Shown here piece by piece: positions 15,774-61,628 of a stretch of DNA of 64,000 nt. Positions within the stretch are counted from its first letter, which is position 1. Each line of letters begins with the position of its first letter. The translations under genes and the position numbers were made by a program. The stretch is from contig JBAZMT010000001.1 of NCBI GenBank assembly GCA_041649615.1, positions 26,981-90,980 of the forward strand, read 5' to 3'. Source of the stretch: Parcubacteria group bacterium. Its GTDB lineage: Bacteria > Patescibacteriota > Minisyncoccia > UBA6257 > Colwellbacteraceae. The notes beneath the pieces were generated by a model. That model saw nothing but the letters and a program-made list of their open reading frames with translations. It ran no database searches and was not told the origin of the DNA.

Positions 15774-15872
15774 ATCAAAATTGTCTTAATTTTATCTTTT
15801 TTTGCCTTTTTAAAGAAATCAAACGGAAAATTTGGCGCCAAACGAACAGAAAAATGGCATAATAGATATAGG

Positions 15873-18800: not shown

Positions 18801-19520
18801 ACCACAACCCAACAATTAACCTGGAATTCCGCAACAGACGCGAATTTTGATCACTATGAGATATGGTACGGAACGAATCAGCCTGATGTGGAGAATCGTG
18901 CAGGTTCGGCAAAAAAATGGAGCGTCACGAATGATGTGACGCTTGGTATTGCGGTAACCACCGAAACAACGATTAGCGGATTAACCTCTGGAACCACTTA
19001 TTCCTATAAAATATGGGCGGCTGATATTGCGGGAAACGAAGCGACGATTTCCGGCATTTTTAAAGCCACGAGTTCTTCTGGCGGAGGAAACAATAACGGA
19101 GGGAGTGGGAAAGGAAGTTCCTATATTCCACCACCGCCCTTACCTATAGAACAAGCAAGTCTCGGAGAGCTTATAAATCAGGTAAGGATTCTTATCGGGC
19201 AATATGTCGCCGCCGGCGGCACGCTTACGCCGGGTATGGTCGCTTTTCTTGAAACAAGCAATATTTTGGCGCCATCATCGTTGCCGGTGAGGGATCTCCA
19301 ATTCGGAATGATCGGCGAGGACGTGCGTACTTTGCAGAGAATTTTGATTGATCTGGGATATGCCATACCATCCGGCGCAACCAGCCGGTTCCTATGGGAA
19401 ACGCAAGCAGCTCTTTCCGCCTATCAGCGCGACCATAAAATTTCTCCGGCAGTGGGAATGTTCGGCCCGGTCACAAGAGCCTATATGAAAGAAGCTGGCG
19501 TCCCCGGGATTTGGTGGTGA
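15873..19520 (+). CDS. large secreted surface protein with repeated Ig/FN3-like modules and C-terminal peptidoglycan-binding (PG_binding_1-like) domain
   Basis: 1215 aa. Signal peptide LIAGVVALLTGTAYAA. Internal repeats NWTSASDTNFNHYEFWYGTDQ / TWNSATDANFDHYEIWYGTNQ. C-terminal LQRILIDLGY...AYQRDHKI resembles PG-binding helix-bundle repeats. Confidence 0.7.
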   Translation: MANNCKIKQMHHKSRKLRSVFLIAGVVALLTGTAYAANVARDMLVYRGTITSVPVYRTHDGSTFSSESSALSVSVAINNIKVVSKPGTGAVEKVMCATNTSNDVYCQVYNGASWGNSITLSTATGGQRAFDLAYESVSGRAVACYRSPLNTQMPYCAIWDGSSWGTPFTATATGSALTTMRLISDPNSNYIALITRNGGNDLNTQIWNGSSFSAIQSLTANGSNCAGCLSYAGAWEGSSGDFVAGWFDNTTGNLQSKEFNKTSGWVATINNVITSVSTANVWIEMASRPFANDILVAVLDGSSVLRANHWSGSNWDTTGTTAITLASPISGTVSSTNHLFDIAYEQRADYDAVVAYGSTASSLQYRVWDTGTNTWGTAATLPTASQNATWLQLASDPKLANIMLTLLGSTNIGTLEWNGNAWDPSWTAQSTASNDNRWNAWFAYDKEDENDHAPSIVINSAAEKTNGSGLVDISVSVSDVGLDNAKLKVEYGACDGTWQNAAITSLVSATYGTPDISGGDYQIGTNTPIVTNPAITGSSANTLTFLWDSKTDLANGNATYCLRFTGHDGVSATEIPPTTTLMIDNVRPAVPTDFQGVGTTSSIQHLNWTSASDTNFNHYEFWYGTDQTKVEDQISSPGEAVEFGPADFPTLNNAATYHAHIMELDPLTTYHFALWAVDDFGNETMAMLKSGLDAPNDSGDSLTYTTLETDFNATPISAVPTDMEQVENDTRYVTFSARIYDIDLDDVLMRVRFATDADGFATFNNANIVSAEVINPVTDPEGPWDDDNIAIDNTFDFQVGKGNPISLNEFTPHEDLDGNSEGAVLLIIWDTKASELNGFAGDVKIQVTPMDINGQIGSVYTSAEFEIDDKYPTLTEIIPVPQYTNDATPSYTFNSNDVATLEYDGSCNSSTTSISAGNKTITLSVPGEGTYDDCTITATDDNYNSDPVLSVLHITPFVVDTTLPTGLASLAAGTSTTTTQQLTWNSATDANFDHYEIWYGTNQPDVENRAGSAKKWSVTNDVTLGIAVTTETTISGLTSGTTYSYKIWAADIAGNEATISGIFKATSSSGGGNNNGGSGKGSSYIPPPPLPIEQASLGELINQVRILIGQYVAAGGTLTPGMVAFLETSNILAPSSLPVRDLQFGMIGEDVRTLQRILIDLGYAIPSGATSRFLWETQAALSAYQRDHKISPAVGMFGPVTRAYMKEAGVPGIWW

Positions 19521-20168: not shown

Positions 20169-20229
20169 TTTCGATGTATCTTAATCTTTAACCCTTTTTG
20201 TTTTGTTTCGATACAGTGTTGACTTGGTG

Positions 20230-20300
20230 CTGCCGGGCAGGGATTCGGACCCCGATACCATGCTCCAGAGGCATGTGTCCTACCATTAGACGACCCGGCA
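20230..20300 (-). tRNA. tRNA-Gln (anticodon CUG)
   Basis: Reverse complement TGCCGGGTCGTCTAATGGTAGGACACATGCCTCTGGAGCATGGTATCGGGGTCCGAATCCCTGCCCGGCAG folds as a cloverleaf: 7-bp acceptor, anticodon stem CATGC/GCATG, loop CTCTGGA. CCA is not encoded. Confidence 0.8.
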
Positions 20301-23642: not shown

Positions 23643-24575
23643 ATGAACGAGATTGCCAAAGGAATAGACCTTTCGGCTTTGAAAGGCAATCAATACGACT
23701 GGTTACTCGCAAGACTCATTACGGAAGGGACGGAAACGCCGAGTCCGCAGAAAGAATCCGCGTGGAGGCTTCCGCCCGTAACTTTGGCCTACGACTTAAG
23801 GGTAGAAACTGGCGAAGCAGACAGGATTTTACTACCCGTGCCGAAGAGCAGTTCAAAAAACGGTATTTTCTCCGCTATCGGGGAAATAACGGCTTTTATG
23901 AACGGCGTCGTGACCCACGAAGGGTTAATGGAGTTTGGCTGCGACTGGTGGGAAAGATGGACGAGCGAGGAATATCTTAAACATTGCGAACTCGATCTTA
24001 TGCCCGGAGAATTGGGGCCCGGATCGTACGGAGCGGCGCTTCACGATTTTCCGACAGCGGAAGGAAAACCCTTCAACCAGGTGAAACACGTGACGGAGCA
24101 AATAAAAGAGCTCCCGTATCTTCGTACGCATCTTTGGACCACATGGATTCCGCAGTATATCGGAAGAGGCAAGGGCAAGAAGAGGCAAGTGGCGGTGGCT
24201 CCGTGCCATGGCACTATCACGGATTTTGTTCCGAACATACAGACGAAAGAGCTATCGCTTTATCACGTACAGCGCTCGGGTGACGTGCCGGTCGGCGTGA
24301 AATGGAACATAATCCAATATTGCGCGGCTCTTTTGATGATGGCGCATGTCACCGGCTATAAGCCCGCCTTCTACTACCATATCATTCTTGACCCGCACAT
24401 CTATGCGCGACAGGTGGAACCCGTGAAGGAATATCTCAAATTCCCGGAAAAAGATTTTCCGAACCTTGTTCTCAAAAATACCGACATCACGGATATCTTC
24501 GCTTTTCGTAATACGGATTTTGAGCTCGAAGGTTACCTCAAGAGGCCGTACATCAACATACCGACACCCGACTGA
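23643..24575 (+). CDS. thyA: thymidylate synthase family protein (ThyA-like, divergent, N177-type)
   Basis: Start chosen at the ATG preceded by a strong RBS (taaggaggaactatcgaATG). Catalytic APCH cysteine motif, QRSGD, KWNIIQY (Asn retained) and LDPHIYARQVEPVKEYL align with ThyA PCH / QRSxD / PFNIASY / GDxHxY. A Thr follows the conserved Arg of the RR pair. Confidence 0.75.
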   Translation: MNEIAKGIDLSALKGNQYDWLLARLITEGTETPSPQKESAWRLPPVTLAYDLRVETGEADRILLPVPKSSSKNGIFSAIGEITAFMNGVVTHEGLMEFGCDWWERWTSEEYLKHCELDLMPGELGPGSYGAALHDFPTAEGKPFNQVKHVTEQIKELPYLRTHLWTTWIPQYIGRGKGKKRQVAVAPCHGTITDFVPNIQTKELSLYHVQRSGDVPVGVKWNIIQYCAALLMMAHVTGYKPAFYYHIILDPHIYARQVEPVKEYLKFPEKDFPNLVLKNTDITDIFAFRNTDFELEGYLKRPYINIPTPD

Positions 24576-24594
24576 CTTCCGAAGGAGGATAAAT

Positions 24595-25548
24595 ATGAAT
24601 GCAATGCCTAAGGTTGCGATCATCGCGGCAGTATCGCTCAACGGCGTAATCGGAAAAGAGGGGAAAATCCCTTGGAAAATTCCGAGCGATCTCAAGAGAT
24701 TCAAAAAGATCACAATGGGACATCCTGTCCTTATGGGGAGGAAAACCTACAGGTCTATTGGAAAGCCTTTGCCCGGAAGGATGAACATTGTTCTTACAAG
24801 GAACCGCGATTGTTCCTTAGAGGGATGCGTCGTGGTCCATTCTTTTGACGAGGCGTTTGTCGCGTGCGACAAGAACGAAACACTTTTCGTAATTGGCGGA
24901 GGAGAGGTTTATCGCGAAGCGTTAAAATACGCGAGCGAGTTTCATTTCACGAGAGTAAATAAAGTGATTGAGCACGGGAACGCTTTTTTCCCGGAATGGG
25001 ATCAAGACCAATGGGAGGATGTCACTTTTCCGGAGTATTCTGATCTTTTGCAAGAAGGTGACGAGGTCTCCTACACTTTCAGGTCGCTCCGGCGAAAAAA
25101 TCTTTATACTACCGACAATGCCCGGACAGCCGATCAGCGCGAAGCAATGGAACGTATAATGGCCGGAGGCAAATGCAATTTCTGCTTGCCTGATCTCGGA
25201 GAAGAGCACAAGAAGCCGATCATTTACGTGGGCGAGCACTTCAAAGTAACGGAGAACCAATGGCCTTATCCGGCTGCCAAGAACCACATTCTTATCATTT
25301 CCAAGACTCACGTCAGTCGTCTTGCCGATCTGCCAAAAGGAGCGGGAGACGAATTGATACGCATCGCCTGTATGCTTCAGGAGACGTATAGCGTGAAAGG
25401 CGGAGCAATCTGCATGCGGTTCGGAGATTCAAATCTGAACGGTGCGAGTGTGGAGCACTTTCACGTTCATTTTCTAGTTCCGGACCCGGAAAAAGAAGCT
25501 CTCTTTTTCTGGATTGATAAAAAAGACAAAATAATAAGCCCCGTCTGA
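24595..25548 (+). CDS. folA: dihydrofolate reductase fused to a C-terminal HIT (histidine-triad, Hint-like) domain
   Basis: Start at the ATG after RBS ggaggat. N-terminal approx. 165 aa is DHFR (VAIIAAVSLNGVIGKEGKIPWKIPSDLKRFKKITMGHPVLMGRKTYRSIG, VIGGGEVY). C-terminal approx. 150 aa has CNFC and the histidine triad EHFHVHFLV. Confidence 0.75.
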   Translation: MNAMPKVAIIAAVSLNGVIGKEGKIPWKIPSDLKRFKKITMGHPVLMGRKTYRSIGKPLPGRMNIVLTRNRDCSLEGCVVVHSFDEAFVACDKNETLFVIGGGEVYREALKYASEFHFTRVNKVIEHGNAFFPEWDQDQWEDVTFPEYSDLLQEGDEVSYTFRSLRRKNLYTTDNARTADQREAMERIMAGGKCNFCLPDLGEEHKKPIIYVGEHFKVTENQWPYPAAKNHILIISKTHVSRLADLPKGAGDELIRIACMLQETYSVKGGAICMRFGDSNLNGASVEHFHVHFLVPDPEKEALFFWIDKKDKIISPV

Positions 25549-32653: not shown

Positions 32654-34066
32654 CTAACGGGATAGAAGAAGGGGAGTAATATCCGAGATGTTTCCGGCGC
32701 CCATTAGGACGAGGATATCGCCCTTTTTTAAGGAGAGCTTAGCTATGCTTGGTTTAATATTTTTAACATTCTTAATATAAGTTGCTTTTGAAACCTGGAT
32801 TCCCGCCTTCGTGGGAATGACGGAAGATGGGAGATTATTAATATCGCGCGCGAGGGATTTGGAGTTTTTGGTTTTGGATAATTCATCTCTTCCTTTGGGA
32901 TTATAGGCATCAAGAAGAAGAACGTAATCGGCGTCGTTCCAAGAGGAAACGAAATCTTTATACAAAGCGGTGAGCCTTCGTTGTTGATGAGGCTCAAAAC
33001 AGACGGCGATACTCTGGCTTGGAAATTTTTCGCGGAGCGCTTGCAAGGTCGCTTTTATTTCCGTTGGATGATGAGCGTAATCGTCATAAACTTTAACGCC
33101 GTTTTTCGTAACGCCTTTATACTCAATTCGACGCCAAACCCCTTTGAATTCCGATAAGGCGCTTAAAATTGTTTTCTCGTTTATTCCTAACTTCTCTCCA
33201 AGTTTATATGCGGCAAGAGCGTTCATTATATTGTGTGTTCCCGGAATTTTGATAACGCGTTTTATTTTTTGAATTTCGGATTTGTTTTTTTCTGAAAAAT
33301 TAATTATGTTCCCCCATCCTTTTAAGCGGGGGATTAGAGATGCCGAATTTTTGTTGTCGCCGTTCAGGATTATATCTCCTTTTTTCGGAACGGATTTGAG
33401 AAACTTCAAAAACGAATTCTTGACGGCCTTCAAATCTTCATAAAAATCAACGTGCTCCAGATCAATGTTCGTGACAATCGCGGCGTACGGCCTGTAATGC
33501 CAAAAGGCGCCTTTATATTCGTCGGCTTCAATCACGAGCCAGTCACTTTTACCGTGTCGCATATTCCAACCGTTCAATTTGGTTCCAATAATGACCGTAG
33601 GGTCCATTTTAGCCTTAATAAGGATCGTTGAGACCATTGCGGTCGTAGTGCTCTTGCCGTGACTGCCGGCGATGGCGATTGTCTTATACTTCTTTGTTAA
33701 TTCTCCCAGAGCTTCGGGATAGGTCTCTCGCTTAATATCCAAATTATCCGCCTTCTGTAATTCGGAGTTATCTAAGGGTATAGCGGCTGAATAGATAACT
33801 AAATCAGCCTTTTCGGGCAAATTTACCGATTTGTGCCCAATTTTGACCTTTATCCCGTCTTTCTTTAATTCCCTGGTAATTTGACTTTCTACGGCATCAG
33901 AACCTGTTACGAGCCAATTTTCGGCCAAAAACCAACGAGCTAAGGAGCTCATTCCAATGCCGCCTATACCGATGAAATGAACCACTTTTCTGTTGGCCTG
34001 ATAGGGGAGACTGACGCCTGAGCGAACTTTAGGTTTTACAAATTTAGACATATTCGGATACAACAT
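32654..34066 (-). CDS. murC: UDP-N-acetylmuramate--L-alanine ligase
   Basis: VHFIGIGGIGMSSLARWF Rossmann N-terminus, Mur ligase P-loop GSHGKSTTTAM, C-terminal KKGDILVLMGAGNI. True start may be the Met at 34051. Contains an in-frame copy of the palindromic repeat (residues SVIPTKAGIQ). Confidence 0.85.
   Translation of the reverse strand: MLYPNMSKFVKPKVRSGVSLPYQANRKVVHFIGIGGIGMSSLARWFLAENWLVTGSDAVESQITRELKKDGIKVKIGHKSVNLPEKADLVIYSAAIPLDNSELQKADNLDIKRETYPEALGELTKKYKTIAIAGSHGKSTTTAMVSTILIKAKMDPTVIIGTKLNGWNMRHGKSDWLVIEADEYKGAFWHYRPYAAIVTNIDLEHVDFYEDLKAVKNSFLKFLKSVPKKGDIILNGDNKNSASLIPRLKGWGNIINFSEKNKSEIQKIKRVIKIPGTHNIMNALAAYKLGEKLGINEKTILSALSEFKGVWRRIEYKGVTKNGVKVYDDYAHHPTEIKATLQALREKFPSQSIAVCFEPHQQRRLTALYKDFVSSWNDADYVLLLDAYNPKGRDELSKTKNSKSLARDINNLPSSVIPTKAGIQVSKATYIKNVKNIKPSIAKLSLKKGDILVLMGAGNISDITPLLLSR
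32797..32823. repeat. palindromic repeat element copy A (GGATTCCCGCcttcGTGGGAATGACGG), inside murC coding sequence
   Basis: 8-bp inverted repeat ATTCCCGC/GTGGGAAT with 4-nt loop. Shares flanks aacCTGG...GAATGACrGAA with the other copies. Translated in-frame as SVIPTKAGIQ within murC. Confidence 0.8.
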
Positions 34067-34526: not shown

Positions 34527-35741
34527 CTAAAAATAATTGTTCGGGTCCATGGTGGTACCGACAGGGACAACTCCGGCACCCGCGAAACCTTTAAGCTCCA
34601 TCGTTTGGTAAACTCCGAAGTGTAAGTGAGGACCGGTAGCGTAACCGGTGTTTCCCGAATAGCCGATTATCTCTCCTTGCGTGACAGACTGGCCCACGGA
34701 AACCGATTGTTGCGACAGGTGGGCGTAAAGGGTAAAGAAATTGTCATCATGCTTTATGACGATGTATTTGCCGTATTGATAATTACCATTATTGCCAACG
34801 GCTAATATTCTTCCCGAGGCCGCGGCGATGATGGGCGTGCCGATAGGCATTCCATAATCGTTTCCGTTGTGAAAGCCGGTCTTATAAGCCGTTTTGGCGA
34901 AATCCGTGGCGCCGTACCGCTGGGTCATAATCCGTGAGCCGGTGAAAGGATTTTTAAGGTATCCCCTGCCCGGCGCCAAGGCGGCGTTGAAGTTCTTTCT
35001 AAGAACCGCTTCCAATCCTTCAATTTCCTCATTGATACTTTCTTGTTTCTTTTCCAGTTCGGAAAGCTGGCGTTGAAAAGCCGATTCCTGATTCTTCGTT
35101 TCTTTGAGAAGAGTTTCTTTATACGATTTCTGGTCTTGCACTATCACTTTGCGGTTTTTGAGATTAAGCTGTTCGTTCACCAAACCGGTTTTCTTGGAAT
35201 CAGTATCTTTGATGTTTTCATCAAGAGCGGACGACAAGTTTCTAAGCAAAACGATTTCGTTCCCTAGGGATGCCTGAAGTTCGTCAAGGTTTGAGAGTTC
35301 CGTAACGCTGTCGGCAAGACTCTTACTTGAAAGAAAAGTTTCCAGAACGCCGACTTTTTCACGCTGGTTTATTTCCCTGATGATCGTCGAAATACTCGCT
35401 TTCTTTTCGGATATCATTCTTTCCGTATCGGAGAGCTGAATGCCCAGATTCTCAAGCTCAAGAGTGAGCTTGTCTATATTTATTTCACTCCCTTTGATGT
35501 TCAGTTCAAGATTCTTGATGGTATATTCGGTGCTTTGGATTTCGCGTGAAAGCGATTTGCTCTGGGAACTTACGTTGTCAAGTTTGCCTTGAGTATCGTT
35601 GATCTGGCTTTGAACGTTTTCCAGTTCTTTGCTTTTCGCATCAATGCGCGCTCTTAAGTCGGCTTCGTTTTCCGCGAAAGCCACCGGAACGCTTCCCAGT
35701 AAGAACAATATAAAGACCAGAACGTTAAGAGAACGCTTCAT
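34527..35741 (-). CDS. M23-family peptidase with N-terminal coiled coil (EnvC-like murein hydrolase/activator)
   Basis: Signal peptide, approx. 250 aa coiled coil, C-terminal M23 motifs HNGNDYGMP...HLHFGVY. Confidence 0.8.
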   Translation of the reverse strand: MKRSLNVLVFILFLLGSVPVAFAENEADLRARIDAKSKELENVQSQINDTQGKLDNVSSQSKSLSREIQSTEYTIKNLELNIKGSEINIDKLTLELENLGIQLSDTERMISEKKASISTIIREINQREKVGVLETFLSSKSLADSVTELSNLDELQASLGNEIVLLRNLSSALDENIKDTDSKKTGLVNEQLNLKNRKVIVQDQKSYKETLLKETKNQESAFQRQLSELEKKQESINEEIEGLEAVLRKNFNAALAPGRGYLKNPFTGSRIMTQRYGATDFAKTAYKTGFHNGNDYGMPIGTPIIAAASGRILAVGNNGNYQYGKYIVIKHDDNFFTLYAHLSQQSVSVGQSVTQGEIIGYSGNTGYATGPHLHFGVYQTMELKGFAGAGVVPVGTTMDPNNYF

Positions 35742-35747
35742 GACGTT

Positions 35748-37136
35748 TTATTCGGAAATTTTTTCCAGAGCTTTATTAATTCGGGAAATGCTTTCTTCTT
35801 TACCCAAGCCTTCCATTATTTCAAAAGGTCCCGGAGATTCTTTAGACCCAGAAAGAGCGACTCTTAACGGCCAGAGATACTCCCCTTTCTTTCCTTCGGG
35901 AATTATGGCGAAAATGGATGCTTCCAAATTTTCTTCGGCGAATTTACCGGTTTCCGAAATTACCGAGAGCAATTTTTCCAAATTTTCTTTGATATTCCCC
36001 TTTTCGCCTTTCCAATAAAGTAAGTCGGTCGGATAATCCGGAGATTCAAAGAAAAACCGTACAGCATCTTCTAAGTCAGATAATTTTTCTAGCCGGGTTT
36101 TGACGGCATTCATAATACTCGGAGTAAGCCGCCAGTCTTTGGGGATGAAGTCCTGTCCCCTATTTGTAAGCTCTTCCGCGGGAATAATTTCCGAAATATA
36201 TTTTTTATTCAGCCAATTCAGTTTTTGAAAATCAAAAACCGCTCCCCCTTTTTGAATTCGGGAAAAATCAAATTCTTTAACCAAATCTTCTTTGGAGAAC
36301 ACCTCTCTGTCGTCTTTCGGATGCCACGAAAGAAGCGCCAAAAAATTAATAATCGCTTCGGACAAATATCCCTTGTCAAAAAATTCAACAAGAGCCGTGT
36401 CTCCTCCTCTTTTGGACATCTTGCTTCGATCAGGATTCAAGATAAGCGGCAAATGTCCAAAAACCGGTTCTTTCGCGCCTAAAGCTTCAAAGAGAGCGAT
36501 TTGCTTCGGAGTATTCGCCAAATGATCTTCGCCGCGAATAACGTGAGTGATTTCCATTTCTATGTCATCAACGACGACAGAAAAATTGTAAAGAGGTTCT
36601 TCAAGAGATTTAGCGACAACCACATCGCCGATAAGCGAAGCGTCGTAGCTCACTTCTCCCCGAATCATATCTTTAAAAGATATTTTTTTGTGAGGCATTC
36701 GGAATCGCCAGACGTAAGGTTCACCCGAAGCGATTCTTTTGTCCGATTCTTCTTTGGAAATCACGGCGCACTTACCCGAATAAACGAAAGGTTTCTTTTC
36801 TTTTTCAGCTTTGATTCGCTCCGCGTCAAGTTCACTTTCGGAACAAAAGCAAGGGTAGACTTTATCTTTTTTAATCAGGTTTTCCAGACGCTCTTTGTAA
36901 AGATTCGTTCGTTCGCTTTGTCTGTAAAATTCGTCCCAGTCAAGACCAAGCTTTTTTAAGCCTTCCACGATACTTTCTTCGTATTCTTTTTTGGAACGCT
37001 CCTTGTCCGTGTCTTCAATCCGCAGAATGAATTTGCCGCCGTTTTGACGAGCGAAAAGCCATACAAAAAGACCGGCGCGAGCCGTGCCGATATGCATCAT
37101 TCCCGTGGGAGATGGAGCCAATCTGACTTTAACCAC
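35748..37136 (-). CDS. gltX: glutamate--tRNA ligase
   Basis: PSPTGMMHIGTAR (HIGH), KMSKRGG (KMSKS), class I catalytic core. 462 aa. Confidence 0.9.
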   Translation of the reverse strand: MVKVRLAPSPTGMMHIGTARAGLFVWLFARQNGGKFILRIEDTDKERSKKEYEESIVEGLKKLGLDWDEFYRQSERTNLYKERLENLIKKDKVYPCFCSESELDAERIKAEKEKKPFVYSGKCAVISKEESDKRIASGEPYVWRFRMPHKKISFKDMIRGEVSYDASLIGDVVVAKSLEEPLYNFSVVVDDIEMEITHVIRGEDHLANTPKQIALFEALGAKEPVFGHLPLILNPDRSKMSKRGGDTALVEFFDKGYLSEAIINFLALLSWHPKDDREVFSKEDLVKEFDFSRIQKGGAVFDFQKLNWLNKKYISEIIPAEELTNRGQDFIPKDWRLTPSIMNAVKTRLEKLSDLEDAVRFFFESPDYPTDLLYWKGEKGNIKENLEKLLSVISETGKFAEENLEASIFAIIPEGKKGEYLWPLRVALSGSKESPGPFEIMEGLGKEESISRINKALEKISE

Positions 37137-38286
37137 GAGCTAATTCTACCAGTTTTTCGGCAATTTTCCGAGCCGCATCCGGTTTTGCGAATTCTTTTGC
37201 CGAAGCGGCCATTGATTCCAAAAGGGAGGTTTTGGAAATCAGTTCTCCCAAGACTCGCAAAAATATAGACGGATTTAATTCCTCTTCCCTTAAAACTATG
37301 CAGGCTTTGGCGCGTTCGTAAGCGAGCGCGTTTTTAAGCTGATGGTTTTGAGCCGCTTCGGGAAGAGGAATCAAAATTGACGGCTTGCCAAGCGCGGCAA
37401 ATTCAAAGATGGATGATCCGGCGCGAGAAATGAAAATGTCGGCGGCGGCGAAAACTTCTTTAATATCGCGGTCAATGAAATCGGTCATTCGATAACCCGA
37501 TGAATTCATTTCTTCGGGAGAATCAAAAAGATTGCCGATCGCTCCACTTACTTCGGCAAACGATTTCGCTCCGGTCTGGTGAAATATCTGGAGGCCCATT
37601 CCAAGCATTTCGGAGACGGACGAAACTACGAGATCATTCATTCTCTGCGAACCTTGAGAGCCGCCGATAACAACCGCTAAAAGTTTTTCCGGGTTAAATC
37701 CCAAAGAAAGTTTGGCGGCACGTTTATCCGGCAGATTTTCAAAAACGATCGGACGCAAAGGATTTCCGACCACCTCGCTTTTTTTTCGGTCTTTGTCGCG
37801 AAGATCGTCCTTTGCGTCTTCAAACGCCAAAAATATTTTTCTTGCGAAACGAGCCGAAATTCGGGTCGTGATACTCGGAACGGAATCCGATTCGTGAATC
37901 ACAACCGGAAGAGAAAAAATCCGACCGGCGATAATCGGCGCTAAACTTCCAGGACCTCCTTTCCCGAAAATCACATCAGGCTTCTCTTTAAAAACAAGCA
38001 TCATGGATTGCACCAAACTCAAAATAAATTTCGGCGCTTCCAAAAAATTTTCAACCGAAAAATATCTTCGCAGTTTGCTCGGAATGATTTTTCTTATTGT
38101 AATTCCCAATTCTTCAAATTTATCCGCATAATCTCCCGGATTACCGACATAAACCAGTCGCAGGATTAGTCCTTTCTTATCCGCGATATTTTTTGCCTCC
38201 GAGCACACCGCGAGAAGCGGATTGATATGACCGGCCGTGCCGCCGCCCGCAAGCATAATTTTTATTTCTTTCTTTTCTCTATCCAT
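37129..38286 (-). CDS. murG: undecaprenyldiphospho-muramoylpentapeptide beta-N-acetylglucosaminyltransferase
   Basis: Start set at the internal Met (MDREKKEIKIMLAGGGTAGHINP). G-loop GGGTGGH and C-terminal GT-B UDP-GlcNAc binding region. Confidence 0.85.
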   Translation of the reverse strand: MDREKKEIKIMLAGGGTAGHINPLLAVCSEAKNIADKKGLILRLVYVGNPGDYADKFEELGITIRKIIPSKLRRYFSVENFLEAPKFILSLVQSMMLVFKEKPDVIFGKGGPGSLAPIIAGRIFSLPVVIHESDSVPSITTRISARFARKIFLAFEDAKDDLRDKDRKKSEVVGNPLRPIVFENLPDKRAAKLSLGFNPEKLLAVVIGGSQGSQRMNDLVVSSVSEMLGMGLQIFHQTGAKSFAEVSGAIGNLFDSPEEMNSSGYRMTDFIDRDIKEVFAAADIFISRAGSSIFEFAALGKPSILIPLPEAAQNHQLKNALAYERAKACIVLREEELNPSIFLRVLGELISKTSLLESMAASAKEFAKPDAARKIAEKLVELARG

Positions 38287-39373
38287 GTCGCAAAGCGTTA
38301 ACCATAAGTCCCGCCATAGCCATAAAAGTAACAAGAGCGGTACCTCCGTAACTTACAAAGGGCAGAGGCACTCCGGTTAAGGGAATGAACCCCGAAACGG
38401 AAGCTATGTGGGTAAAAGCTTGAAGGCCGATTATGGAAGAAAAGCCGATAAGTATCAACTTCCCGAAGTCGGAGTGGGCCCGCGCAGAACCCGAAAGGCC
38501 GGTAAAAACCAGAAGGAAATAAAGGGCGATAAAGAACATTGATCCCACAAAACCGAATTCTTCGGCGACCACGGCAAAAATGGAATCCCCGATCGGCTCC
38601 GGCAGAGAATTCTTGAGAGTGGAATTTCCGTAACCGACTCCCGTAAGACCGCCAGAACCGACCGTAATGAGAGATTGGTTCAGATGATAATTCGTGCCGC
38701 GAACATCCGTGTCGGGACTTAAGAAAGACAAAATTCTTGATTTTCTGTAAGGCGTAAAAGTGATAACGAGCGTAAGTATCAAAATGCCCACAAGTCCCAT
38801 AATGGCGATAAAAGACAGTTTCGTGCCGCTCATAAAGTAAACGATCAGGGTAGAAATCATAATGATTATCAAAATGCTCGTTGAAGGCTGCGCTAAAAGC
38901 AATCCGCCGATAACGGCGCAGATTATCATAAAAGGCAGAAGCCCTTCCGACAGATCTTTTTTGCGGTCTCTTCCTTTGGAGGTCAGCCAGGCGGAGATAT
39001 AAACGATAAAAGTGAATTTGAGCAGTTCCGAAGGCTGGATCTGAAAACCGAAAATATCAAGCCATCTCGCGGAAGTGCCGAACTCGCTGCCCAAGGGCGT
39101 GAAGACAAGGATTAATCCGGCGATATTGATGAGCAACAGAACGAAAGAAATCTTTTTGAGGAATTTAAGCGGAACGAACATGGCGGCGAGAAAAGCAACG
39201 AGCCCAATGCCCAATCCGAAAATAAACTGATGCTTCAGATAGTAATACGCGTCTCCGAATTTTATTTCGCCCAAAGAGGACGAAGCGCTCGCAAGAATCG
39301 CCATACCCAATACAATCAGGGCGGCGGAGATGACTATTATGATAACGTCGGCGTTTTTTTTAATGACGTGCAT
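38279..39373 (-). CDS. ftsW: SEDS-family peptidoglycan glycosyltransferase (FtsW/RodA)
   Basis: 10 TM, conserved SEDS blocks (NxxxL..xGxxxQPSE, PxxHTDFIF-like region IPEPIGDSIFAVVAEEFGFVG). Located in the dcw cluster next to murG. Confidence 0.85.
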   Translation of the reverse strand: MHVIKKNADVIIIVISAALIVLGMAILASASSSLGEIKFGDAYYYLKHQFIFGLGIGLVAFLAAMFVPLKFLKKISFVLLLINIAGLILVFTPLGSEFGTSARWLDIFGFQIQPSELLKFTFIVYISAWLTSKGRDRKKDLSEGLLPFMIICAVIGGLLLAQPSTSILIIIMISTLIVYFMSGTKLSFIAIMGLVGILILTLVITFTPYRKSRILSFLSPDTDVRGTNYHLNQSLITVGSGGLTGVGYGNSTLKNSLPEPIGDSIFAVVAEEFGFVGSMFFIALYFLLVFTGLSGSARAHSDFGKLILIGFSSIIGLQAFTHIASVSGFIPLTGVPLPFVSYGGTALVTFMAMAGLMVNALRHG

Positions 39374-39378
39374 AGTAT

Positions 39379-40836
39379 TCAGATATTAACTATTTCACCG
39401 GAATGGACGTTATTGAAAGAGCCCTCTTCAAAAGCGATTTCGCCGTTTACAATCGTGATTTCCGGTCGGTTGTTTTTAACAATGGTGATATCGGCGGCAT
39501 ATCCTTCCTTGATAACGCCTCTTTTTCTAAAACCCAAAATACGCGCGGGGGCGGAAAGCTTTTTGCCCACGAGTTCAGGCCGAATTCCCAGCCGGTCGGA
39601 GAGCCGGATAAATTCGGCAAAGGGATCGGAAAGTTCCCTGTGTTTTATGGATATTTTTGACATCGGACTCCAGCCGGAGCTGCCGATAATGCTTCTTCCG
39701 TGAGAAGCGATCTTTTCTATCAGTTCTCTATCAGCCATACGCGTTAAAAATTCCGTATCCGCGCCGCACATCGAAACGATGCGGACAAAGGCTTCTTCAG
39801 GGACTATTCCCCTATTTGCCGCAAATTCGGCGACCGATTTTCCCAGGAGAAACTTCATTTCTTTTCGCGGCGCAGAAAAGATAAACGTCTCCTGCGGATC
39901 GAAGGCTCGGGTTCTTTTAGAAAGAAAACCGAAAAACCTTTTTTTCTTCAAAGCGTCAATAAGCCCAACAGATTTTTCTCTGTTAACGGATTTCGGGAGA
40001 ATATCTGCGGCCTTGAAGCGATGGTAGGGATAAGGCGAAAAAGAGAAAGCAAATTCCGCTTTGGGAGATTTTCTCTCAATGGCGTTAACGATTTTTTCAA
40101 AAGCGGAGGCGGAAGAGAGCGAACCGTTCAAGTTTCCGATGATGACTTTAATGCCGGATTCAGCGAAGGGCGCGTAAGATTTATCTTCGGCGGAAAGAGG
40201 AATGAAAGCCGTTTTGTTTTCCTTGAGAAGAATATTTTTCAGGGTATTCAATTCTTCTTCAGAAGCGTCAAATTCGGCAAATCCCCTGTCGCCCACCGAT
40301 ACGCCGACCGAATTATCGGCAAATTCTTGTCCTAGGATGTGAGACAAGACGCCAATTTCTTTTACGCCCAGATTTCTCGGCTTTGGCGTAAGAGAACGCC
40401 TTAAAGTTTCATAGCCTAAAAAACTCGTGAAATTGACGCCCGGATGAAGCGTTTGCACCGAATTCAGATATTCACCCATTCCCCGCCAGCCGGCATTTGA
40501 GGAAGAAACGTCTCCTGCATACATAGCGGGGGCTAAAGACTTGCCTTCGGCGCCGCAAACTATAGTGGTAACTCCCTGTCTTAAAAAATCCGCCTGATCG
40601 GGTTCGCTCAAAAGCGACAAACGATGATCGGAGACGGATGAAATATCTATAAACCCCGGGAAAATCAAGCTTCCGGTTGCCGAAATGATGCGATTGGCTT
40701 TGTATGCCGGAAAATCTCCCAAAGCAGCGATGCGGCGGCCGATAATGAGCACGTCGCTTTTTTTCGGCGCGCCACCCAAACCGTCAATAACTTCGCCACC
40801 TTTGATAAGGAGAGACATTGCTCCATTATAACTCAA
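39379..40836 (-). CDS. D-aminoacylase-like amidohydrolase-family protein with degenerate HxH metal site
   Basis: N-terminal LLIKGGEVIDGLGGAPKKSDVLIIGRRIAALGD...PGFIDISSVSDH (amidohydrolase beta-sandwich + first strand) and C-terminal RGVIKEGYAADITIVK. The PGFIDxHxH His pair is replaced by SSV. No Mur-ligase P-loop, so not murD. Confidence 0.6.
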   Translation of the reverse strand: MSYNGAMSLLIKGGEVIDGLGGAPKKSDVLIIGRRIAALGDFPAYKANRIISATGSLIFPGFIDISSVSDHRLSLLSEPDQADFLRQGVTTIVCGAEGKSLAPAMYAGDVSSSNAGWRGMGEYLNSVQTLHPGVNFTSFLGYETLRRSLTPKPRNLGVKEIGVLSHILGQEFADNSVGVSVGDRGFAEFDASEEELNTLKNILLKENKTAFIPLSAEDKSYAPFAESGIKVIIGNLNGSLSSASAFEKIVNAIERKSPKAEFAFSFSPYPYHRFKAADILPKSVNREKSVGLIDALKKKRFFGFLSKRTRAFDPQETFIFSAPRKEMKFLLGKSVAEFAANRGIVPEEAFVRIVSMCGADTEFLTRMADRELIEKIASHGRSIIGSSGWSPMSKISIKHRELSDPFAEFIRLSDRLGIRPELVGKKLSAPARILGFRKRGVIKEGYAADITIVKNNRPEITIVNGEIAFEEGSFNNVHSGEIVNI

Positions 40837-40892: not shown

Positions 40893-41942
40893 TTAAATTA
40901 TCCTATCTAGAAAGAACAGGATGAGGCCGGCGCCGGCGGTAACTCCGGAAATAATCCAAAAACGCATAGTGATTTGGGATTCAGGCATGCCTTTCGCTTC
41001 AAAGTGATGATGAATCGGCGTAGAGAGGAAAAGTTTCTTTTTAAATATCTTCTTGTAAATCATTTGGATGATAACGGAGAGGGATTCAATGACCATGACG
41101 AGAGCGAAGAAAGGAAGAAGGATGACCGTGTTCGTGAGCAAAGCGATTACGCCCATGGTAATCCCCAAAGCCATTGAACCGGTATCGCCCATGAAAAATT
41201 TGGTCGGATAGACGTTGTTCCAAAGAAAAGCGATCATGGCTCCGATCATGGCTCCCGTAAAAGCCGCAAGATCGTATCGGCCGAGAACGAAGGCTATCAC
41301 GGCGAGCGCTCCAAAAGCGAAAATTGATACTCCTCCCAGAAGCCCGTCCAGACCATCCGTTTCGTTTGCGGAAAAAGCGCTCGCGGCAATGATGAAAATA
41401 AAAATGGGAATATACCAAAGCCCGATATCGACGGCACCGAAGAAAGGGATATTCAACACGTGCCAATCCAAGTGGGTCGGCGAATAAAACCACCAAGCGC
41501 CAAAGGCCCCCAAAGCCGCATAAAGAAGAAGTTTGTGTTTTACGGAGAGTCCTCCTCCTTTGGGTCCGATCCTAAAAACGCCAAGCAAATCGTCCGCCAG
41601 TCCCACAAGAGCGGCGATAATCATCGCGGCAAGGGGTAAATAAGTTTCCGCCCGATCTATAAAATTAAGGTTTTCGTATATGCCGCCAAGGATTTTACTT
41701 GCAAGAAACATTAAGACGGCAGTCGCAAGAACGGTTCCCCAGATAATCACTCCTCCCATGGTCGGAGTTCCTTCTTTTTTGGCATGAAGAGCGGACATAA
41801 CCGGAGCGGAAGAAGCGTCTCTTATCTGTTTTTTAAGACCGAATCGGCGCAATAATTTCAAAATCAGCGGCGTAACCGCAATGGCTATGGCAAAAGCCGT
41901 CATCGTGACGGCAAGAACTTTAATCGCCTGAGTCAGTATCAT
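40893..41942 (-). CDS. mraY: phospho-N-acetylmuramoyl-pentapeptide transferase
   Basis: KKEGTPTMGG motif, DD and HHH-region motifs (STPIHHHFE), 10 TM. Confidence 0.9.
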   Translation of the reverse strand: MILTQAIKVLAVTMTAFAIAIAVTPLILKLLRRFGLKKQIRDASSAPVMSALHAKKEGTPTMGGVIIWGTVLATAVLMFLASKILGGIYENLNFIDRAETYLPLAAMIIAALVGLADDLLGVFRIGPKGGGLSVKHKLLLYAALGAFGAWWFYSPTHLDWHVLNIPFFGAVDIGLWYIPIFIFIIAASAFSANETDGLDGLLGGVSIFAFGALAVIAFVLGRYDLAAFTGAMIGAMIAFLWNNVYPTKFFMGDTGSMALGITMGVIALLTNTVILLPFFALVMVIESLSVIIQMIYKKIFKKKLFLSTPIHHHFEAKGMPESQITMRFWIISGVTAGAGLILFFLDRII

Positions 41943-42852
41943 CGTTTAAGAACCGAATTATTTTTTCGGCCTCCGTAATTCTATCATCCGCTCCGAGAAT
42001 GATAACGGCATAAGGTTTTCCTTTGACCGAAAAGACGGCAATGAGATTTTCGTTGGCGTCTTCGGTAAAGCCGGTTTTACCTCCCAGAAAATCGTTTCTC
42101 GCGGCAAGAGAATTAATATTCGTCAGACGAACGCTTTTATTGGAATTGAGCTCTTTGATAATGGTGGTTTTTCTGGAAGAAACGGAGAAAAGTTCCGGGT
42201 GAGCGCTCCAGGCATATTCCACGAGCAAGCTAAGATCGTTCGCGGTTCCCTGATTCAGCATGGAAAGCCCGGTGGTCTCCACAAAATGAGTGGCGTTCAT
42301 TCCGAGCTCCGCGGCTTTCCTATTCATAGCTTCCACGAATTGACCGGCCGGCATATTTTCGGACAATGCCACGGCCGCATCGTTTGAAGAGACGACCATC
42401 ATCGCGTAAATAAGGTCTTCAACCGAATATTTCTCCCCTTCCATAAATCCGCCGGAAACACCTTCGGTCGCAATGGCAGTTCCTGAAAAAACTATTTTTT
42501 GATTTAAATCCATTTTCTCCAAAGCCACGATGGAGCTCATTAATTTGGAAAGAGAGGCAAGAGGCCATTTTTCCGTTTTACGGAGAGAAAAGATTTCTTC
42601 TCCGGAAGACAGATCGGTGACCATGCCCGCCTGCATGGACAAATTTTCGGGCGTTTTCGGTTCTTTTTTGCCGGGAAGTTCTCCCGCTCCCGGAAGAGAG
42701 GGATTTTCAGCGGAAGGAATTGAAGAAACAATATTTGCCATTGTGTTCGTGTTTTTACCGTCGGAAGAAAAAGCCGCTAACCCTAATTTAGCGCCTAAAC
42801 CGACGAGAAGAAAGACGGCTCCAAAAATTACGGCTTTAACGGTATTACTCAT
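41920..42852 (-). CDS. D-alanyl-D-alanine carboxypeptidase (S11, PBP5-like)
   Basis: Signal peptide; SxxK (LASLSKLM), SxN (SSND) and KTG (GKTGFT) active-site motifs. Confidence 0.8.
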   Translation of the reverse strand: MSNTVKAVIFGAVFLLVGLGAKLGLAAFSSDGKNTNTMANIVSSIPSAENPSLPGAGELPGKKEPKTPENLSMQAGMVTDLSSGEEIFSLRKTEKWPLASLSKLMSSIVALEKMDLNQKIVFSGTAIATEGVSGGFMEGEKYSVEDLIYAMMVVSSNDAAVALSENMPAGQFVEAMNRKAAELGMNATHFVETTGLSMLNQGTANDLSLLVEYAWSAHPELFSVSSRKTTIIKELNSNKSVRLTNINSLAARNDFLGGKTGFTEDANENLIAVFSVKGKPYAVIILGADDRITEAEKIIRFLNDDTDSGD

Positions 42853-44067: not shown

Positions 44068-45441
44068 TTAATAATTGGTTTTGAGCCAGTTTAAAATTTT
44101 AACGGTATCCGAATGGACGTCTTCCGACCCCAAAACGATAATCGCTACCGGACGTTCTTCGCCGGACAAATCAAGATTAAAAACGCTAAGGAACGTTTCT
44201 TTGGCGGCCGAAGTCTTCCCTATTTTCCCGCCGAAGAAAGAAGGATCGTCCCCGAAAAGGTTGAAATTTGAAAGGTTGCTGAAGGAAGGCCTTCCGTAGA
44301 CGGAATCTTTGAGGTCGCCCGAAGATATTTTCAAAATGAAGTTGCGGTTGTTATACAAATATTTTGCGAGATTAAAGAGTTCTACGGCGTTGCTTTTGTT
44401 TCCTTCGCTTGATCCCGAAGGGTCCGTGAAGGCGGTTTTATCCATTCCGATAGCTTTCGCTTTTTTGTTCATAAGCGATATGAACCGGTCTCGTCCCAGG
44501 TGATCTGCAAATGTTTCAGCCGCTTCGTTTGACGACTCTAAAAGAAGGGGGAACAAGAGATCATAAGCAGTAACGCTCATGCCGGCCGTTAAACGCGGCG
44601 TAGAAGTTTTGACTAACGCTTCTTCGGGAACAACCACGTTCGCTTCAAGATTGATGTATTCTCCGGCAATCAAGGCGGTCATAATTTTCGTGATAGAGGC
44701 GATCGGAAGAATGTCCCCCGAATCTTTTTCAAGCAGGACGTGATTGTTTTTTAAGTCAGCTACCAGGAAAGAATTGGTAGTCAGGTCGGAGGGACCGAGA
44801 CTGTAAACAAAATCATCGGCGTAGAAATCGCGTTCAAAAACGATGACGGGCATTCCGATATGCGCAAGGCGAAATATGTTTTCGGCAGATTCATCGGAAA
44901 GCCTGATGCAACCGCCCGAGAAGCTGGATTCAACCGGCCGTCCATCGGGATAATAGGGCCAGCCGTGAATGAAGAAATTTCCTTGAAAGGACATGCTCCA
45001 AGGCTGGTACACTCTCCCGAAAGAAGAGAAATGATTTTTCTCCATGGTTTCAATTTTGTATATGCCGGCCGGCGTTTCCCACCAGGAGCCTTCTTTTCCT
45101 TTGGTCAAGATGGGCGCTTCGTATTCCAAGTTACCTTTGAGGTAAACGCGAATAGTCATGTCCGATAAATTGGCTTCAATAAAGTCCGCTTCGTTTTTAA
45201 CGAAAGATTCTTTAACGTCCGTAAAAAAATCGGGGTTGGCCAGAGCGGGCAGTGCGCCGAATTCAAGTTCTTCCGGATTGGGAGAAGTGTTGCCGACAAA
45301 AAGAGAATAATTAACGTTCTCCCGAAAAACGGACATAAAAACGGAAAATCCGACAACCAAAAAAGCGAGCAAAGTCAAAACTATGCTTAGAGGAATTTTA
45401 GCGTTTAAAATATCTTTTATCTTTCTAACGGCAACCATCAT
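44068..45441 (-). CDS. fusion protein: L,D-transpeptidase (YkuD) domain + D-alanyl-D-alanine carboxypeptidase (S11) domain
   Basis: N-terminal TM; YkuD catalytic motif FFIHGWPYY...SGGCIRL; downstream SxxK (ASITKIM), SxN (ESSNEA) and KTG (GKIGKTS). Confidence 0.65.
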   Translation of the reverse strand: MMVAVRKIKDILNAKIPLSIVLTLLAFLVVGFSVFMSVFRENVNYSLFVGNTSPNPEELEFGALPALANPDFFTDVKESFVKNEADFIEANLSDMTIRVYLKGNLEYEAPILTKGKEGSWWETPAGIYKIETMEKNHFSSFGRVYQPWSMSFQGNFFIHGWPYYPDGRPVESSFSGGCIRLSDESAENIFRLAHIGMPVIVFERDFYADDFVYSLGPSDLTTNSFLVADLKNNHVLLEKDSGDILPIASITKIMTALIAGEYINLEANVVVPEEALVKTSTPRLTAGMSVTAYDLLFPLLLESSNEAAETFADHLGRDRFISLMNKKAKAIGMDKTAFTDPSGSSEGNKSNAVELFNLAKYLYNNRNFILKISSGDLKDSVYGRPSFSNLSNFNLFGDDPSFFGGKIGKTSAAKETFLSVFNLDLSGEERPVAIIVLGSEDVHSDTVKILNWLKTNY

Positions 45442-48686: not shown

Positions 48687-48760
48687 TGTCAGGTCGTCTA
48701 ATGGTAGGACAGCGGCCTTTGAAGCCGTGAATCATGGTTCGAATCCATGCCTGACAGCCA
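48687..48760 (+). tRNA. tRNA-Gln (anticodon UUG)
   Basis: TGTCAGGTCGTCTAATGGTAGGACAGCGGCCTTTGAAGCCGTGAATCATGGTTCGAATCCATGCCTGACAGCCA: 7-bp acceptor, anticodon loop CTTTGAA, TTCGAAT T-loop, encoded CCA. Confidence 0.8.
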
Positions 48761-60594: not shown

Positions 60595-61628
60595 CGTCCT
60601 TTGAGAAACGCGGCGCCGTCATCCGGATCAACAACCGTTATTTCTATGCCCGTACCCAATTCAAAGCCCGCCGAGATAACGATCTTCGGCTGAATTTCAA
60701 TGTGCCAGTGATAAAAAGGATAATCTTCCCTGTTCTTGACCGGAGCCGTGTGAATGAAAAAGTTATAATCAACGCAGCCTAATCTGTCTTCAAGCATTTT
60801 TAGAGATTTTTGCAAAGCTTCGGCAATGTACTTCAGGCAAGACGGACCGCAATCTTCAAAAAACGGGGAATGAATTTTAGGGAATACTCTTATTTCAAAA
60901 GGTTCCCGTGAAACGAAAGGAAGAAAAGCGATCGCTCCCCGATTTTCAAAGATAATTCGTTTTTTCTCGGCTTTTTCTTTTTTTAAAATGGTGCAATGAA
61001 CGCAAGAACCGTTTTCTTTGTAATACCGTTCCGAACCGCGCAAAGAGTGGCTTACGTCCGGAGGAACGATCGGAATGGAAATCATTTGATAATGAGGATG
61101 ATAAACGGAAGCTCCCGCCGCGAGTCCCCAGTTGTGAAATATGGAAACGTACGCGATTCGTTCGTCTCTCGCGACCATGCGGTATCTTTCCTGCATTACT
61201 TCCAAGCACATTGTCGCTTCGGCCGGAGAAAGGCGCGGAAAATTTTCATCATGGCCCCGGGTTATGACGACATCATGATAGCCCACTCCTTTCATCAAGT
61301 AATAGGGACCGTTTTTCAGGACGGCGGTTGTTTGTTCGGTACCTGAAAAAACAGCCGGATAAAGATTCGGAACGACTTGGATCCGCCAGTTGCCGCGTTT
61401 GTCCTCGCGAATCAGAACCGGTTCGGCGTTTCCCGAAGCCTGGGGATTCTCAAAAGGACATTTATCTTTCGGAACAACGATCTTTTCTTTTTTTACTATG
61501 AGCTCTTGAGGTCTTTTTTTTCGTCCGGTCGCGATAAGAACCCAATCGCCGGACACGATGTCTTGCCTGAATTCGGATCCGTCAGAGGGAACGCTGGTTT
61601 TTTTTCGGCTGCCGAAAATTCCTGCCAT
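60591..61628 (-). CDS. galT: galactose-1-phosphate uridylyltransferase (GalT/HIT-like)
   Basis: IFHNWGLAAGASVYHPHYQ (HxHxQ active site), Cys/His zinc ligands CVHC. 345 aa. Confidence 0.8.
   Translation of the reverse strand: MAGIFGSRKKTSVPSDGSEFRQDIVSGDWVLIATGRKKRPQELIVKKEKIVVPKDKCPFENPQASGNAEPVLIREDKRGNWRIQVVPNLYPAVFSGTEQTTAVLKNGPYYLMKGVGYHDVVITRGHDENFPRLSPAEATMCLEVMQERYRMVARDERIAYVSIFHNWGLAAGASVYHPHYQMISIPIVPPDVSHSLRGSERYYKENGSCVHCTILKKEKAEKKRIIFENRGAIAFLPFVSREPFEIRVFPKIHSPFFEDCGPSCLKYIAEALQKSLKMLEDRLGCVDYNFFIHTAPVKNREDYPFYHWHIEIQPKIVISAGFELGTGIEITVVDPDDGAAFLKGR

Follow-up and report, generated by a model that had tools for sequence, protein, structure and literature searches.

Which protein is encoded between mraY and ftsW in the dcw (division and cell wall) gene cluster of a Parcubacteria group bacterium, and does it stand in for MurD? 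The DNA analyzed here is a 64-kb stretch (GenBank assembly GCA_041649615.1, contig JBAZMT010000001.1, positions 26,981 to 90,980; hereafter the window), whose first-pass annotation had described the product of this gene, here termed X, as a D-aminoacylase-like protein with a degraded metal site that occupies the murD position. We report that X is a D-aminoacylase homologue in which all six metal and catalytic residues have been replaced, and that X and murD lie side by side in relatives. We are highly confident that X is a pseudoenzyme and does not substitute for MurD. Taken as a whole package, the reading that X is an old operon member, derived from a D-aminoacylase and now serving the MraY/MurG/FtsW step without catalysis, as a scaffold, adaptor or regulator, seems to us evenly poised between right and wrong. 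The gene and two short elements discussed with it are as follows.

39379..40818, minus strand: X, a D-aminoacylase homologue of 479 amino acids, predicted to be catalytically dead (open reading frame call, translation)
40821..40824, minus strand: GGAG, putative ribosome-binding-like site just 5' of the ATG at 40818 (read from the sequence; inferred)
40624..40659, minus strand: degenerate HxH motif, codons 54-65, PGFIDISSVSDH (HMMER alignment to 1M7J, MAFFT columns)

The open reading frame (ORF) of X is intact over 39379-40836 (-), where the TTG at 40836 is merely the first possible start. The ATG at 40818 is almost certainly the true start, because GGAG is found at 40824-40821 and the resulting N-terminus, MSLLIKGG, is invariant among homologues. 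The 479-residue product matches, at 100% identity, a protein of a 203-kb contig that was deposited as 'hypothetical protein WC565_00380 [Parcubacteria group bacterium]'. Its N-terminus forms the first strand of the modeled fold, and X is on that basis a cytoplasmic protein without a signal peptide.

Fold and active site of X

X was matched to the D-aminoacylase structure 1M7J as a single sequence (expectation value, E, 1e-24), and a profile of its subfamily matched 1M7J and 3GIP with E values of 6e-67 and 2e-55, respectively. An AlphaFold2 model built from 110 sequences had a mean predicted local distance difference test (pLDDT) score of 91.2 and a predicted template modeling (pTM) score of 0.92. 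Foldseek aligned this model over its whole length (~520 columns) to the D-acylases 9KB3, 1M7J, 3GIP and 9G5M with template modeling (TM) scores of 0.77-0.79, compared with only ~0.5 for other amidohydrolases. Thus, the family assignment of the first-pass annotation stands, and the complete D-aminoacylase fold is kept in the model. X is homologous to these enzymes over its full length, with the beta-sandwich, (beta/alpha)8 barrel and alpha/beta insertion present in both, and the motifs PGFID, QGVTT, SLAP and C-terminal RGxIxxGxxAD are shared. It differs from them in lacking all six metal and catalytic residues as well as Arg377, in lying within a peptidoglycan-synthesis operon, and in scoring below the Pfam gathering thresholds (19.1 bits against 29.7 for Amidohydro_3 and 17.7 against 25 for Amidohydro_1). 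The Pfam amidohydrolase match is limited to the C-terminal 30-40 residues, and NCBIfam models cover just the N- and C-terminal sandwich segments.

Ligands are numbered here as in the D-aminoacylase of A. faecalis, and columns were taken from the HMMER alignment to 1M7J and from MAFFT. The carboxylate site of D-acylases consists of Tyr283 and Arg377 and the acyl site of Tyr192 and Asp366, with Asp366 as the general base (PMC12149444, 2025). Both residues of the HxH pair have changed in X (His67 to Ser60, His69 to Val62), as have the beta-site metal ligands (Cys96 to Glu91, His220 to Pro207, His250 to Asn229) and the catalytic aspartate (Asp366 to Ser381, within GSSGW; the canonical sequence is GSDG). 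Degradation of the metal site, which had been noted for the His pair, therefore extends to all six residues. Beyond these, Tyr192 of the acyl site is replaced by Gly179 and Arg377 of the carboxylate site by Glu395, while the Tyr283 column holds Ser261 with a tyrosine two residues further on (SPYPY). Trp111 is conserved over the whole alignment.

The same loss was seen throughout the window's clade, in which none of 22 sequences has the canonical residue at any of the six ligand positions. His67, His69, Cys96 and His250 are variable (Cys96 is replaced by Lys, Glu, Asn or Arg and His250 by Gly, Asn or Glu), His220 is mostly Ser and otherwise Pro, and Asp366 is mostly Ser. Arg377 has become Glu, Ala, Lys and others, Tyr283 is Ser in 18 of the 22 and Tyr192 is Gly in 21. 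In the same alignment, His69, His220, His250 and Asp366 are kept in 61 of 61 canonical homologues, which speaks against the objection that the His ligands of X are present and merely offset. Judged by these columns, the active site of X is gone, not shifted, and deacylase chemistry would be impossible in this clade.

X has nevertheless been maintained as a gene. Protein clusters with a full-length ORF (469-491 residues) free of frameshifts number at least 21, at 47-62% identity. For the same genome pairs, the nonsynonymous substitution rate (dN) was 0.32-0.40 for X and 0.27-0.33 for MurG. For the three pairs that allowed an estimate of the synonymous rate (dS), dN/dS was 0.14-0.25, which serves as a rough bound only, with dS saturated above 1.3. 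Within the clade, normalized bit scores of X (0.49-0.63) were similar to those of MurG and GltX. As far as these sequence comparisons tell, X is under purifying selection and not a pseudogene, and in this clade its rate of evolution is about as low as that of MurG.

In profile searches for homologues, the window's clade alone supplied the profile for the genome scan and an alignment of deeper relatives that for metagenomes. The state of the site in the wider subfamily was surveyed with an exhaustive profile search of 1.84 billion representatives, in which 3409 proteins matched at E<=1e-30, and the best 150 of the 3409 were examined, 137 of which are full-length. Each of these 150 scored at least 375 bits, compared with ~230 bits for solved canonical D-acylases. 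Counted as clusters at 50% identity, the full-length members of the subfamily number at least 137. Among these 137 closest full-length representatives, the HxH pair is kept in 2, Cys/His/His in ~60 and Asp366 in ~21, and 38 have kept none of the ligands. The substitutions at the lost positions are many and differ from one another, and by this evidence the active site has decayed many times over within the subfamily. At the same time, Gln75, Leu95, Asn108, Phe130, Leu150, Phe258 and Phe403 are conserved in the subfamily and rare in canonical enzymes. Taken with the repeated decay of the site, this conservation suggests that selection acts away from the old catalytic center.

Several other features of the subfamily were recorded. 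Two proteins (handles beginning with P denote proteins and those beginning with L homologue loci read for synteny), P0447 (955 amino acids) and P0497 (1077 amino acids), consist of two tandem D-aminoacylase-like modules, and loci L140 and L165 hold two copies of X; together, these hint that paralogues could form heterodimers. Fusion of X to other cell-wall proteins was considered and rejected, since the long matches proved to be tandem X-X duplications. A separate, abundant branch of ~570-amino-acid homologues was found on soil and sediment contigs of the Joint Genome Institute (L111, L119, L123-L126, L128, L132, L135, L137-L139, L142, L143 and others). In this branch, Leu-Gln (or Leu-Trp) replaces HxH and Cys96 falls in a gap, but His220, His250 and Asp366 are retained. 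N-terminal leader sequences are predicted for some members, and scpA/scpB lie 3-5 kb away in eight loci.

Synteny of X and murD

Homologue loci within the lineage, which is labeled Sungbacteria, Colwellbacteria or Paceibacterota in the records, fall into four groups by identity to X, state of the site and gene order.

Window's clade, 47-62% identity (L001-L007, L013-L015): six ligands all lost; mraY-X-ftsW-murG-gltX-M23, then murC
Partial-site relatives, 27-32% identity (L008, L009, L010, L020): Cys, His, His and Tyr192, Tyr283, Arg377 kept; no HxH; Asp366 replaced by Asn or Ser; X directly 5' of ftsW
Fully degraded relatives, 27-32% identity (L016-L019, L022): all ligands lost, with different substitutions; mraY-X-ftsW
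Deeper relatives, ~25-28% identity, labeled Sungbacteria (L012, L021, L093, L098, L099): mostly T-H-C-H-H-D or T-H-C-H-H-N, with S-R-S-H-H-N in L099; X directly 5' of murD

Genomes of the window's clade include JBAZND01, JALOAR01 and CAYGDC01, and those of the relatives at 27-32% identity include JAQTRD01, JACWAO01, JAMCXR01, JBAZLC01 and CAZRNY01. One relative that keeps Cys/His/His and has Asn at position 366 is P0025. X lies directly 5' of ftsW in every clade member and in every 27-32% relative whose contig reaches that far, and no murD was found at any readable locus of these two sets within ~10 kb on either side of X. In seven Parcubacteria loci, X lies directly upstream of murD. Five of them are the deeper relatives, in which the order is mraY-X-murD-ftsW-murG-gltX-M23 wherever the contig is long enough and the X-murD junction is usually a 4-nucleotide overlap. 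The other two, L173 and L174, serve as an independent check, as they were picked via MurD alone without reference to X, and both have an amidohydrolase gene directly 5' of murD, within one and the same operon. L173 is a complete 923-kb chromosome (CP066690.1). In relatives generally, X is separated from the next gene, be it ftsW or murD, by a gap of 2-13 nucleotides or overlaps it by 4, with the exception of L012 (32 nucleotides).

The mraY-X-murD-ftsW order in deeper relatives indicates that X is an older, extra member of the cluster and that the departure of murD from between X and ftsW came later. X can thus no longer be said to occupy the murD position, as had been proposed; the two genes were neighbors and murD left the slot afterwards. 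Conservation of the neighborhood was borne out, with X directly 5' of ftsW or murD in loci of the lineage and mraY, ftsW, murG or murD beside the homologue in 0 of 69 loci outside it (other phyla).

The murD-adjacent copies of X have mostly T/L-H-C-H-H-D together with Arg377; those of L173 (6421-7998) and L174 read T-H-C-H-H-D and L-H-C-H-H-D, respectively, with Arg377 and Tyr192 kept. It is plausible from these residues that murD-adjacent X retains a one-metal site (T-x-H, Cys, His, His, Asp).

The MurD proteins encoded next to X have Lys at the Lys348-type position in 7 of 7 cases, and at the first specificity position Asp in 5 and Glu in 2. The two with Glu at the equivalent of E. coli Asp182, one of two residues reported to set specificity for D- or L-Glu, are those of L098 (2095-3309) and L174 (8001-9302), in which the second position is Lys. 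In Xanthomonas, MurD2 is an L-Glu ligase that works with MurL, an ATP-dependent epimerase without known domains (PMC8788868). The resemblance to X is that an accessory gene adjoins a gene for a MurD-type ligase, as in the seven loci. The difference is that X matches amidohydrolase families only and the MurDs next to X are canonical-like; MurL was here set apart from X by its description, not by sequence. None of the seven X-adjacent MurDs has the MurD2 pair Glu197 and Arg358, and a MurL-like epimerase or MurD2 pathway was rejected for X on both grounds.

Further loci bear on the cell-wall context of X homologues or of this lineage. In Pacebacteria (L011 10001-13895, GCA_028718665.1), a homologue with N-N-S-H-H-N lies directly 5' of murA and mreB, with mreB-mreC-PBP2 further on, and adjoins neither mraY nor ftsW. 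In three genomes of Candidatus Saccharicenans (L027, L043, L044), canonical-looking D-aminoacylase homologues lie immediately 5' of an M23 peptidase gene, an independent link of the D-aminoacylase family to wall hydrolases. In one 29% identical relative (L008 16433-18741), a gene for a FemX-like transferase overlaps that for a 435-amino-acid MurE that is missing its N-terminal Mur-ligase domain. MurE of this short form is highly conserved in Parcubacteria, with the best 120 matches listed at 54-68% identity and 401-465 amino acids. The presence of murE and the FemX-like gene a few kb downstream of X in this relative implies that a D-Glu-containing precursor is needed in the lineage.

The operon and other genes of the window

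On the minus strand of the window, the genes run in the order DUF4015 protein, YkuD-S11 fusion, scpA, scpB, S11 carboxypeptidase, mraY, X, ftsW, murG, gltX, M23 peptidase and murC. The order mraY, X, ftsW, murG given in the first-pass annotation was confirmed, supported by Pfam matches on an identical contig (L001) and, for murC, by NCBIfam.

41920..42852, minus strand: S11 D-Ala-D-Ala carboxypeptidase, upstream of mraY (PF00768)
40893..41942, minus strand: mraY, 349 amino acids (PF00953 on the identical contig L001)
39374..39378, minus strand: X-ftsW spacer, 5 nucleotides from the X stop codon to the ftsW start codon (read from the sequence)
38279..39373, minus strand: ftsW, a protein of the shape, elongation, division and sporulation (SEDS) family, 364 amino acids (PF01098)
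37129..38286, minus strand: murG, 385 amino acids as called on the identical contig, 8-nucleotide overlap with ftsW (PF03033 and PF04101)
35748..37100, minus strand: gltX, embedded in the cluster (PF00749)
34527..35741, minus strand: M23 (LytM-type) peptidase, coiled coil at the N-terminus (PF01551)
32654..34066, minus strand: murC, the sole Mur ligase of the window (TIGR01082, 395 bits against a cut-off of 335; the only P-loop; the only phmmer match)

Translational coupling of X and ftsW across the 5-nucleotide spacer is probable, given their spacing. Promoter and terminator scans around the cluster returned hits at chance level, and no terminator-like site was called in the spacer. The 64 kb hold no second Mur ligase: the single P-loop motif belongs to murC, and phmmer searches with MurC, MurD and MurE queries against all 191 ORFs of the window returned murC alone at E<=1. 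The earlier statement that murD, murE and murF are missing from the window is thereby upheld. The possibility that MurC is a recycling ligase of the Mpl type was rejected, with the mpl model scoring 197 bits (below its cut-off) and murC 395 (above). Glutamate racemase, D-Ala-D-Ala ligase and alanine racemase were not found in Pfam scans of 30 further ORFs of the window.

Several observations concern the neighbors themselves. The glutamyl-tRNA synthetase gene gltX lies between murG and the M23 gene in all related loci that were examined, across the range between this clade and the Sungbacteria-like loci; a Glu-handling enzyme is fixed within a cell-wall operon. YkuD (L,D-transpeptidase) and S11 carboxypeptidase domains occur together in one 457-amino-acid ORF (44068-45441, minus strand), a fusion kept in related loci according to Pfam matches, in addition to the stand-alone S11 gene at 41920-42852. 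A PBP2/FtsI-type transpeptidase is encoded at the right edge of the window (61628-63493, minus strand); a short contig of identical sequence has mreC before it, along with a small ORF placed as mreD would be. A second wall-synthesis cluster is thus located ~20 kb from the first.

Elsewhere in the window, fibronectin type III repeats and, at the C-terminus, a peptidoglycan-binding domain (PG_binding_1) were found in a 1254-amino-acid ORF (15756-19520, plus strand), most of which has no family match. Another ORF (24427-25548, plus strand; 373 amino acids from stop to stop) combines a dihydrofolate reductase domain (residues 63-223) with a HIT domain (residues 282-353), and may be either a fusion or two genes read together. 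The 64 kb hold two tRNA genes only, both for tRNA-Gln (20229-20300, minus strand, and 48687-48760, plus strand; anticodons CTG and TTG).

Proposed history and present role of X

Bacteria of the CPR (candidate phyla radiation) make peptidoglycan with genomes that are very small and from which many of the known regulators of division are absent. In the reading that we prefer, an N-acyl-D-amino-acid deacylase would have joined an operon of the order mraY-X-murD-ftsW-murG-gltX-M23 early in a Parcubacteria lineage. The A. faecalis D-aminoacylase holds its tightly bound catalytic zinc at Cys96, His220 and His250, with Asp366 as the base. The ancestral operon-borne X may likewise have been a one-metal (beta-site) hydrolase, probably of an N-acyl-D-amino-acid-like cell-wall or salvage substrate. 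Bb3285-type enzymes hydrolyze N-acyl-D-Glu and L-Xaa-D-Glu. The ancestral X might, for example, have released salvaged D-Glu for the adjacent MurD, a reasonable ancestral job given the overlap of X with murD and the Bb3285-type activity. The PDB entry 1V4Y bears the title 'One-metal activation and second-metal attenuation'. The function of the subfamily would then have become independent of deacylase chemistry, and in the window's clade murD would simply have relocated out of the slot. X itself would now act through protein-protein contacts, as a scaffold, adaptor or regulator of the membrane-proximal precursor machinery and the FtsW machinery co-expressed with it.

Comparable fates of catalytic folds have been described. 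PyrC', the dihydroorotase-like subunit of Pseudomonas aspartate transcarbamoylase, and the CRMP/DPYSL proteins have kept the amidohydrolase fold, lost the metal ligands and taken on a structural or partner role. X resembles them in its kept fold, lost ligands and purifying selection, a comparison of mechanism and not of descent, and CRMP structures are among its weaker Foldseek matches. They differ in having known partners and in belonging to the dihydroorotase/hydantoinase branch, not to the D-aminoacylase branch of X. EnvC and NlpD, degenerate LytM/M23 factors, are dead hydrolase homologues that regulate cell-wall enzymes; they are periplasmic and activate amidases. They offer a precedent for a dead hydrolase homologue that regulates peptidoglycan metabolism, with the difference that their fold is unrelated to that of X and that X is cytoplasmic and tied to precursor synthesis and FtsW. 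By analogy with such proteins, we have modest confidence that X acts as a scaffold or regulator in lipid II/FtsW synthesis. A non-catalytic, peptidoglycan-linked role, which had been suggested at first pass, is still the best reading of X.

Four points weigh against this reading. The first is that the scaffold or regulator role draws on an analogy with dead enzymes and on the structure of the operon. The second is the rapid divergence of X towards the nearest outgroups of the clade, where its bit-score ratio falls to 0.19-0.21 while that of MraY is 0.75; this could reflect relaxed constraint instead of a conserved role. Third, Asn231, His393, Lys293/Arg294 and Asn335/Arg336 are polar or charged residues invariant in the clade, and could form a new active site. 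Finally, the absence of murD from the slot is not tied to loss of the ligands: in L095 and L097, murD is not adjacent although the sites are near-intact. A rule by which murD leaves when the site dies was rejected on account of these two loci.

The third point leads to the possibility that X has remained an enzyme (a metal-independent hydrolase, a transferase or an isomerase) whose new active site and new chemistry are built on the old barrel and which acts on a peptidoglycan precursor. The amidohydrolase superfamily does include non-hydrolytic members, such as uronate isomerase. The conservation in the clade is strong (Asn231 in 22 of 22 sequences and His393 in 21 of 22, in addition to Lys293, Arg294, Asn335, Arg336 and Asp408), and the subfamily-specific Gln75, Leu95 and Asn108 flank the former position of Cys96. 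However, the clade-invariant residues are not conserved in the wider subfamily of the same genomic position, the decay of the site differs across the 137 representatives without convergence on a new constellation, and Pfam and NCBIfam scans found no nucleotide- or cofactor-binding motif. We regard a new enzyme as unlikely.

A similarly low probability attaches to X as a non-catalytic binder or sensor of a ligand that contains a D-amino acid (D-Glu, D-Ala-D-Ala or UDP-MurNAc-peptide). Its ancestry among enzymes that bind N-acyl-D-amino acids and its peptidoglycan gene context would suit such a role, and the partial-site relatives at 27-32% identity, with Cys/His/His, Tyr283, Tyr192 and Arg377 in place and Asp366 lost, resemble a non-hydrolyzing binder. 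In the window's clade, however, the ligand contacts and the metal site are gone, and binding would need a different mode. The first-pass suggestion that X binds D-amino acids as its relatives do is weakened, as Arg377 is lost in the clade and Tyr283 aligns to Ser261, with the nearest tyrosine two residues on.

Still less probable is that X is a functionless, decaying relic, kept merely by its position inside an essential operon. The complete loss of the site, a divergence to the outgroups faster than that of the neighboring genes and the repeated decay in the subfamily would all fit a relic, but the ORFs of 469-491 codons that are intact in 21 or more clusters, at identities as low as 47%, a dN close to that of MurG and a dN/dS of at most 0.25 where it can be estimated would not. 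The confident fold prediction and the maintained short spacing to ftsW also argue against it, and a streamlined CPR genome would be expected to shed a useless 1.4-kb gene quickly.

That X replaces or bypasses MurD, as the loss of murD from the slot and from the readable clade and 27-32% loci and the failure to find murD, murE or murF in the window might suggest, is improbable in the extreme, since X has no P-loop or Mur-ligase domain (no Pfam or NCBIfam match at E<=1, nor one with phmmer MurC, MurD and MurE queries), as was first noted, its metal-less amidohydrolase fold offers no evident route to ATP-dependent peptide ligation, it stands beside a canonical-looking MurD in seven loci, L095 and L097 lack murD in the slot though their X looks catalytically competent, and murE near X in the 29% relative speaks for a need for the D-Glu-containing precursor.

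If X is a scaffold, adaptor or regulator, its role might be an ambitious one. It is conceivable, and to our minds rather less probable than the scaffold reading at large, that X represents a core part, specific to the lineage and so far undescribed, of the Parcubacteria cell-wall machinery, a cytoplasmic non-catalytic subunit that organizes or gates lipid II synthesis and SEDS polymerase activity and that arose from a D-Glu-salvage hydrolase. Such a component would be made in step with FtsW, and ancestrally with MurD, in organisms without many of the classical divisome regulators, and its chemistry would have become dispensable. The first-pass annotation had allowed that the family might be a known, conserved dcw-cluster member with an established function. 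The conserved membership holds in this lineage; in the open-access literature, we found no description of a dcw-linked amidohydrolase in CPR and no established function for one, and one broad dcw study excluded CPR. The D-aminoacylase-derived pseudoenzyme subfamily is thus apparently undescribed as a conserved member of a Parcubacteria cell-wall operon.

These findings have consequences for annotation, for the study of pseudoenzymes and for the biology of the lineage. Records name proteins of the X type either 'hypothetical' or 'N-acyl-D-amino-acid deacylase', and metabolic reconstructions should not credit them with the release of D-amino acids. The subfamily forms a natural series from plausible enzyme to fully dead protein, which is useful for studying how pseudoenzymes originate. 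Its sampled members are set between mraY and murD/ftsW, a position that, taken with the repeated decay of the site in a protein that is retained, points to an unrecognized accessory factor of the lipid II/FtsW pathway.

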